Shown: in pieces, positions 4,149 through 6,047 of the stretch | Layout: every line of letters begins with the position of its first letter | Numbering within the stretch: the stretch's first letter is position 1 | Origin: Pachysolen tannophilus NRRL Y-2460 | Lineage: Eukaryota | Direction: 5' to 3' | NCBI GenBank assembly: GCA_001661245.1 | Contig: KV454014.1 | Location: forward strand, 512,954 to 576,953 | Length of the DNA stretch: 64,000 nucleotides | The notes under the pieces: generated by a model | Seen by the model: the letters and a program-made list of their open reading frames with translations, nothing else | Told to the model about the DNA's origin: nothing | The model's database searches: none | Program-made: the position numbers and the translations under genes

Positions 4149-4160
4149 AAAGATAATAAG

Positions 4161-4497
4161 AATTATATTTAATGTAACAAGAACTTTTAAACAATTAAGA
4201 ATATTGAAAAATTATGAAACTGCAAATAGATTCTTATTAACAATGGCTTTAATATTAATGACACCAATTGTAACATTTGTCATTGTTCCAATCCTACAAA
4301 ACTTGGATGAACCAGCAAAATATACCGAATATATTGCTAATAATTATTTTGTCTTTACTCAATTTTCTTATGGTTACATTTTTAATTTTATTATTGTGGT
4401 TATAATATGTTTTATATGGGGTGGTAATAATTTAGAAGAACAACAAAGTTATAGAAAAACGAAAACATTGTCGAATTACAAAATTTGTGAAATCTAA
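4161..4497 (+). CDS. C-terminal transmembrane segment of the PTM1-like protein, inverted relative to the main body
   Basis: IIFNVTRTFKQLR, then a hydrophobic helix, then YIFNFIIVVIICFIW. This resembles the last loop and two TM helices of the GOST/Lung-7TM (Ptm1) family. The ORF portion upstream of about 4150 is low-complexity promoter-like sequence. Confidence 0.65.
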
Positions 4498-4707
4498 AAT
4501 GTATATAGAAGAATCGTTTGACTACCCGAAGAGAATTATACAATTATTTAACAGTATTATTATTAATTATATTACTTCAACCTGTAAAAACCATAAAAAC
4601 CATCAGCTCACTATAAATTAATGGTACTAAACACATACAATAACAATAAAATCCTTTAATTCCCACAATTTTTTTTTTTTCACTAATCCTCTTCAATCAT
4701 ATAGATA

Positions 4708-4770
4708 CTCCTCTACAACCTCTACACCTTCTATATCCTCTACACCCTCTACAACATATACATCCTCTAT
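4708..4770 (+). repeat. Degenerate ~9-bp tandem repeat (CCTCTACA core)
   Basis: ctcctctacaacctctacaccttctatatcctctacaccctctacaacatatacatcctctat. Confidence 0.7.
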
Positions 4771-6047
4771 TGCCTAGCAATGAAAAATAATAAAACGTAA
4801 ATGATCATACCTTGAGCATAATTTATATCGATATATTCTTCATTTTTAAGTGTTGATTTGCGGAAATATTCTCTTAAATAATCTTGAATAGAGAAAACTG
4901 TTGATTCTTCAATATCAAAAATTAAGAAAACTCCCAATAAGATGAAAATTAATACACGGATCATATATATGGAAAATAATCCACTTTTGAAATTACTTAA
5001 TAAGATATAACCATCACTAATTAATAATGTTTGATAAATTATCCAAACTGTGAAAAAAGTTCCTGAACTAAGCTCGATTAAATGTAATAATGCCAATTCA
5101 AGATAATCATGAGAATAACTTGTCTTATTAATAATTGAATATCTGATACTGGTCAACATAAATAATGCTGAACTAATGAAAACATAAAAAATTAATCTTG
5201 TCTGAATAGAAGCTAATTTGGTGACATTTTTCTTGTTATTATAATTATTATTCCCACTAACAGTATTAGTAGTATTAGTATCATAACCATGTGTAGTTCC
5301 ATTACCCAATGATTCATAAGAATAATTATTATTTTGTTGTTTTTTCCTATTTTTATAAAGGTAAAAAAAATAAGAAACACCAAATATGAAATATAACCAT
5401 GACATTATAATTGAAATTTCAACTTCTTCATAACTTGAAATAGTCAATTCACCAAATGATTGTTGAATATCCACCATAATAGAAACTGACTCTAAAGATT
5501 GATCAACTTTTGAAGTATCAACACCTTCTGTGATCAACAAAGTAGGTTTCAAAAATAAACAATACCAACCACTTTCAAAAATTTGATAATTTAAAACATT
5601 ATCACCAACAGTTGAAAGTAAGATATTAGCAATAGCTGCTTTTTCTTGATCTAAAGAATTATCAACTTCAAGTAAAGCATGATTTAACTGATCTTCTTTA
5701 CATCTACCTCTCTCTATATATTCTTCTATACAAATATCAACTTCATCATTAGCAATATTTGTAAATTTTAAAAATTTCTCATTAAGTAAAATGACATTGG
5801 TCATATAATCAATTTTTTTCAATTCATTATCAATTTCTATTTTTGTCTCCAATAATTCAAGTTCAATATATGGCTTCTTATACTCTATAAATGAATGATT
5901 CAAATTTGAAACGAAAAAGCAAAATTTTTCAAATTTATCAGGTTTAACATCAAATATTTCTGAAGTAGAACCTTCACATAGTACCACTAATTGGCATAAC
6001 ACTAAAATTGAACCAACACAAAATTTTTGTAAATTCATTCTATTCAT
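4767..6047 (-). CDS. PTM1/YHL017W-like GOST seven-transmembrane protein, truncated at the C-terminus in this orientation
   Basis: Signal peptide, lumenal domain with Cys residues and YQIFESGWYC (matches the Y.I.+SG.YC pattern), FGEL motif, several TM helices and LLISDGY. Ends abruptly inside a TM helix. Confidence 0.7.
   Translation of the reverse strand: MNRMNLQKFCVGSILVLCQLVVLCEGSTSEIFDVKPDKFEKFCFFVSNLNHSFIEYKKPYIELELLETKIEIDNELKKIDYMTNVILLNEKFLKFTNIANDEVDICIEEYIERGRCKEDQLNHALLEVDNSLDQEKAAIANILLSTVGDNVLNYQIFESGWYCLFLKPTLLITEGVDTSKVDQSLESVSIMVDIQQSFGELTISSYEEVEISIIMSWLYFIFGVSYFFYLYKNRKKQQNNNYSYESLGNGTTHGYDTNTTNTVSGNNNYNNKKNVTKLASIQTRLIFYVFISSALFMLTSIRYSIINKTSYSHDYLELALLHLIELSSGTFFTVWIIYQTLLISDGYILLSNFKSGLFSIYMIRVLIFILLGVFLIFDIEESTVFSIQDYLREYFRKSTLKNEEYIDINYAQGMIIYVLLFFIARQ

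Follow-up and report, generated by a model that had tools for sequence, protein, structure and literature searches.

A seven-transmembrane gene split by a reversed 620-bp block in the Pachysolen tannophilus assembly: a very probable assembly mis-orientation

In the genome assembly of Pachysolen tannophilus NRRL Y-2460 a gene for a membrane protein stops in the middle of a helix and its missing end lies close by on the opposite strand. Has a block of DNA been turned round in the organism, or was it turned round in the assembly? To answer this we analysed a stretch of 64,000 nucleotides (KV454014.1, positions 512,954 to 576,953), referred to here as the window, which is AT-rich budding-yeast DNA from contig C4 of the assembly (G000) and is present in single copy. 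Positions are those of the window unless another sequence is named.

A gene in two pieces on opposite strands

The minus-strand open reading frame 6047-4767 codes for 426 aa and terminates in a hydrophobic stretch inside the fifth membrane helix, which bears out the first-pass annotation of this DNA, where the frame of a seven-transmembrane protein was described as stopping mid-helix. The reading frame, a match to PF21902, the hydropathy profile and a model of the relative P0122 place the 5' part of a GOST-fold gene at 4776-6047 on the minus strand, as codons 1-424, which run from the signal peptide through the PTM1-like lumenal domain and helices 1 to 4 into helix 5, of which they encode the first half. 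The missing helices are carried by a plus-strand open frame at 4018-4497, within which positions 4156-4497 are the C-terminus of the gene and supply the other half of helix 5 together with helices 6 and 7 and the C-terminal tail.

Relatives were collected with a HMMER search that used the front half as sole query. This search returned 10 proteins, nine of which were used for the alignments and the profile; the 132-aa fragment P0129 was excluded from the alignments, and P0126 is without most of the C-terminal part. When the front half was used in a word-based search for homologs, nothing but the protein itself was recovered. Analysis of the tail by blastp gave a match of 35% over 94 aa to residues 364-456 of P0122. 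In the database of nine sequences, P0122, P0125 and P0123 were matched at E < 1e-7, P0131 and P0127 were matched weakly and the other four relatives gave no meaningful match. Against a profile of these nine relatives, made without the window protein, the tail obtained 49.8 bits, compared with at most 7.1 bits for shuffled tails (200 shuffles, 198 scored); on this profile the front half reaches position 355 and the tail spans positions 366-449 of 453. These sequence comparisons confirmed, far above chance, the homology between the tail and the C-terminal end of full-length relatives, and the profile score and the blastp match to P0122 uphold the earlier proposal that the small plus-strand piece is the end of the same gene. 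In the P0122 model the break lies within the fifth membrane helix, residues 347-380.

Orientation of the block in the run contigs

The stretch is contained in five listed sequencing runs (two samples, two studies), none of which is listed as RNA, and four of them, three from one sample, were aligned to L001:1-7580, in which the window position equals the L001 position minus 1500. The sequences compared were Logan contigs and not raw reads, and rare variants are dropped by such contigs. In the rows listed for the four runs, a single contig of 5849-5859 bases crosses both ends of the block in the un-inverted order. Its path follows the plus strand to 4155, runs through the block from 4775 back to 4156 and resumes the plus strand from 4776, with opposite-strand joints at L001 5655-6275 and 5656-6276 in all four runs. 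Relative to these contigs, the assembly thus holds a reversed block of 620 bp at 4156-4775, whose ends share 1 nt and are placed with an ambiguity of 1 nt. Both joints have at least 255 letters on the shorter side and a depth equal to that of the flanks (73, 138, 177 and 112 in the four runs). The bin over the left joint has the depth of exactly one contig, and in all four runs the contig is unbranched at both joints. Among the assembled contigs the order of the window was found in none of the four runs and in neither of the two samples.

The first-pass annotation had suggested that turning about 610 bp would restore the gene, and the run contigs do turn a block of this kind, 620 bp long, giving an intact frame. 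The reading of the flipped order as existing DNA, a biological inversion, found no support, the contigs of all four runs carrying the un-inverted order only (contigs, again, and not raw reads). An intron as the cause of the truncated end was also considered and was dropped, the run contigs giving a direct in-frame join. Two further observations were set aside: a joint from L001 3356 to 6722, seen in three of the four runs with 24 letters on the short side, was taken as a short match to another locus, and the fraction of sampled words present in the runs (0.94; expected 0.965 if turned and 0.985 if unturned) fell below both expectations and was uninformative as a test of orientation.

Could the joined contigs be transcripts? 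The gene would then be fixed in its split form in the genome, its halves expressed separately or trans-spliced. The frame of the tail does have in-frame ATGs at 4243 and 4258, the tail frame of a second split gene described below has an upstream ATG in the window order, and the kind of run is unrecorded for X1-X3. Against this, X5 is recorded as probably DNA, and in each run the contig, at flat depth, spans the intergenic DNA of three genes and includes both reciprocal joints, one of them non-coding. Because of this flat depth across intergenic DNA and the reciprocal non-coding joint, we take the contig to be genomic DNA and not spliced RNA, and a fixed split gene is scarcely credible.

A second reversed block and the gene between the blocks

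The same contigs revealed another reversed block of 429 bp at 174-602, un-inverted in all four runs (joints L001 1673/1674 to 2101-2103), which contains the tail of MRI1, the gene of methylthioribose-1-phosphate isomerase (coding 174-354, plus strand). The 5' part of MRI1 lies at 603-1672 on the minus strand, with 54-69% identity to named homologs, and both pieces matched PF01008. The corrected protein has 416 aa, as does its nearest relative P0003, against which it is gapless at the join. The alignment comprised 12 of the 119 homologs, and a strict version of the motif in the MRI1 tail was found in 93 of the 119. At 563-1672 the public entry P0002 reads both CTG codons of MRI1 as alanine, which fits a CUG-Ala code; the alanines reflect the code that the annotation applied and are not an independent test.

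Between the two blocks lies an intact cytochrome P450 gene at 2226-3815 on the minus strand (PF00067, E 3.4e-54), colinear with the run contigs. The name ERG5-like comes from the first-pass annotation, Pfam giving p450 only. A distance of 340 bases, not part of the block, separates the P450 start codon from the 620-bp block upstream of it. The segment carries the features attributed to it by the first-pass annotation, namely a tandem repeat and a 7-mer at 4514. In the contig order this 7-mer moves from 699 to 596 bases from the P450 start; those resembling it at 4022 and 4142 are not part of the block and keep their place. The 7-mers may be sterol-response elements. The proposed change of the sequence upstream of ERG5 has lost its point: the block contains neither the 340 bases adjoining the start nor the 7-mers at 4022 and 4142, and without a real flip no regulatory consequence for ERG5 follows.

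Block ends and the nature of the joins

The tandem repeat is a degenerate 9-bp array (repeat family D1) at 4710-4775 on the plus strand, which ends at the right edge of the block and, once the order is corrected, lies beyond the 3' end of the gene. Of the four breaks of the two split genes it marks one; the other three have neither a repeat nor a gap to account for a contig end, and no motif shared by the four break points was recognized by eye. All joins are flush and reciprocal; they contain no Ns, and no base is missing. Breakpoints of 4161-4773 with an AG/CT microhomology had been proposed from the sequence; they are 5 and 2 bases off the ends given by the run contigs, and the microhomology is absent from the real ends, which share 1 base. 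Breakpoints chosen from the sequence alone were rejected as a guide, since the candidates with the longest microhomology differed from the true ends. In the ranges tried, the frame was restored by 2382 different breakpoint pairs for the seven-transmembrane gene and by 3393 for MRI1. Because 2382 pairs restore the frame, an in-frame join alone is little proof. The join in the contig order aligned without gaps to P0122 (score 93), and the earlier join, one residue short, needed a gap (score 84).

Inverted repeats were sought at the block ends. The identity between the two ends is 1 nt in both blocks, and among the 25 longest of the 176 inverted pairs none has arms at both true ends; repeats for recombination are absent because the true ends share only this 1 nt in both blocks. 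These results bear on phase variation, in which a reversible switch would flip the block in part of the population and turn the gene off, the assembly having caught the minor form. The flip would indeed cut the protein after helix 4, and contigs are blind to a rare form. Yet neither the repeats nor a common motif at the four break points (by eye) was found for such a switch, the contig is unbranched at both joints in the four runs, and assemblers normally report the major form. Phase variation is highly improbable.

Assembly mis-orientation and other differences between assembly and runs

The run contigs span both joints in the opposite order without any loss of depth, as expected of an assembly mis-orientation, and we conclude that the 620-bp block was very probably reversed by an assembly error and is neither a biological switch nor a real feature. 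In the organism the gene would be intact, its product of about 535 aa having a signal peptide, a beta-sandwich on the lumenal side and seven transmembrane helices. The assembly would have placed the 620-bp piece 4156-4775 in reverse, flush on both sides, and gene calling on the flipped assembly would then have produced the truncated entry of 426 aa. The fault would lie at the assembly rather than in the assembled clone. Short contigs of 0.4-1 kb may have been mis-oriented in scaffolding or gap closing. Joins without Ns are unusual for a scaffolding slip, and a limited literature search found no description of the exact error type. The truncated products P0001 and P0002 (426 aa and 370 aa) are present in the public protein set on a contig of 1,446,495 bases, which is also the length of C4; therefore the flipped order sits in the deposited assembly.

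Apart from the two flips, the runs departed from the assembly over the 7580 bases compared in the length of four homopolymers and in a single substitution next to an A run. Both samples showed all of these differences, which is a technical pattern and not strain divergence. The homopolymer runs are those at 1743, 1938, 4454 and 4668, and in each of them the assembly has fewer bases than any of the four runs. Two of them concern the present block: the A run at 4455-4459 (plus strand; L001 5954) is one base shorter in the window, which by translation alters roughly the final twelve residues of the protein, and a T run inside the block at 4669-4680 (plus strand; L001 6168) is five bases shorter. 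Long A runs also precede both N gaps of the window, 6103-6355 and 31998-32272.

These differences also bear on the possibility that the assembled clone carries private, real mutations, flush micro-inversions by end joining without homology which knock out this gene, MRI1, ADE2 and other genes and which the samples S1 and S2 do not have. The flush, reciprocal joins with no base lost would suit such events, and S1 and S2 may both differ from the DNA used for the assembly. That one clone should gain two inversions in a span of 5 kb is, however, unlikely by inference where 7580 bases contain no substitution outside a homopolymer, and the same assembly shows homopolymer errors and a third flip, in ADE2, on the same contig. 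We give private mutations little credence. The chance is likewise small that numerous inversions of 0.4-1 kb, flush and repeat-free, interrupt genes without accompanying point mutations in the assembled clone or in a minor part of the cells of this yeast, which would point to a micro-inversion mutator or a repeat-free reversible switch.

The third flip was recognized at ADE2 (L012:4092-6300, corresponding to G000:C4:34092-36300), where positions 2-78 of the AIRC model were matched on the plus strand and positions 68-147 on the minus strand. Judged from the sequence, turning about 738 bp (L012 5525/5526-6262/6261) would give a frame of 570 aa. At L009:5081-7065, about 5 kb from the start of contig C4, a zinc-cluster-like head lies on the minus strand and a headless Fungal_trans_2 body (model positions 35-374) on the plus strand; the head had no Pfam match. 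This split regulator probably reflects one more reversed block, about 860 bp long. Headless ORFs were sought with a codon-usage detector in 40 stretches (400 kb) and the window; it missed both cases of the window and ADE2. With a second filter 72 candidates were obtained, and a Pfam scan of 70 of these and three neighbours gave one clear case (ADE2) and one suggestive case (L009); this 400-kb survey is insensitive, covers a region chosen in the knowledge of ADE2 and gives no genome-wide rate.

Other irregular genes were noted in the same genome. At L038:1-1860 an AAA-ATPase gene that resembles RFC1 is spread over three frames that overlap, and A-rich runs mark the places where the frame shifts, which is consistent with homopolymer errors in the assembly. 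A gene that we take to be profilin-like (L011:1500-2081) is in two same-frame pieces with a stop codon between them. At L041:7740-8490 a frataxin-like C-terminal piece (PF01491, model positions 38-105) stands apart from an upstream ORF of the same strand, owing to an intron or a frameshift. In the window, the flavin monooxygenase ORF at 29628-31200 is without a start codon and has branch-point-like repeats and an acceptor upstream, which suggests an ordinary intron.

The corrected protein and its family

In the contig order the protein has 537 aa; including the additional A found in the contigs after 4454 makes it 535 aa. It shows a signal peptide and seven hydropathy peaks, two of which are barely over the threshold of 1.5. 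The window protein matched PF21902 (PTM1-like_N) with 28.8 bits, the cut-off being 27.4. The plus-strand tail piece had no significant Pfam match. A scan with PF06814 (GOST_TM) found no match in either window piece or in any of the 10 homologs, most of them full-length. The only PF06814 match of the genome, in a 625-aa open frame at G000:C3:1658347-1659168 (L049, L050), is at a locus separate from the window gene. The label PTM1-like of the first-pass annotation is thus sustained at the N-terminal domain, where PF21902 scored above cut-off, and by PF06814 the gene is not the GOST_TM/PTM1 gene of the genome. The proposed check of the joined protein with the GOST/Lung_7-TM_R HMM could not discriminate, PF06814 missing all 10 homologs too.

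The fold comparison was made on the relative P0122 and not on the window protein. A single-sequence fold of P0122 (pLDDT 36) was not used. The AlphaFold model from a 10-sequence alignment (pLDDT 69) predicts a beta-sandwich and seven long helices, and with this model the top four Foldseek hits were human TMEM87A (best E 2.4e-9, TM 0.52/0.61), followed by WLS. A sequence search of the PDB with alignment A1 gave no matches, and atlas features lead toward the GOST_TM, GPR180-TMEM145_TM and PTM1-like_N clusters. The window gene is best called a divergent PTM1-like, GOST-fold protein, a second family of this fold and by Pfam not the PTM1 orthologue. According to the available text of PMC9711517, the GOST family comprises GOLD-domain seven-transmembrane proteins, namely TMEM87A/B, GPR107/108, GPR180, TMEM145, TMEM181 and WLS, and a role in Golgi or membrane cargo traffic has been proposed for it. 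From its predicted fold, the window protein would probably act in Golgi or secretory cargo traffic. It resembles GOST proteins in the lumenal beta-sandwich on seven helices, as modelled for P0122, and in its own match to PF21902; it differs from them and from yeast PTM1-like proteins in that the window pieces and all 10 homologs are without a GOST_TM (PF06814) match.

Consequences and comparison with known inversions

Biologically the result is minor, the gene being most likely whole and ordinary. It calls for caution, both flips of the window having vanished when compared with the runs, and the truncated public entries of 426 aa and 370 aa could mislead analyses of gene loss or of pathways such as methionine salvage. 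Other genes of this genome that seem to be split by inversion, such as ADE2, are therefore best presumed to be assembly errors. Should the assembled clone really carry the flips, repeat-free micro-inversion would be a surprising mutational mechanism.

Small inversions of budding yeasts have been counted as whole genes turned between species, on average about 1 to 3.7, in the available text of PMC1391921. As far as that text goes, the block analysed here resembles them in its small size and in the otherwise conserved gene order, and differs from them in that it cuts coding sequence and is absent from both samples. Programmed inversions, such as the invertible switches of bacteria and the flip-flop mating-type switching of methylotrophic yeasts, have flanking inverted repeats and occur in both orientations. 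The likeness to them is that the orientation of the segment would decide whether the reading frame is complete; the differences are that the ends share 1 nt here and that the runs show one orientation only, in contigs that drop rare forms. Neither of these two kinds of inversion suits the block. Local mis-orientation, or false inversion, is a known class of fault in draft genome assemblies. The present case departs from this class in its flush joins without Ns and agrees with it in the short block reversed with respect to independent data, in the genes restored by turning and in the homopolymer errors nearby.
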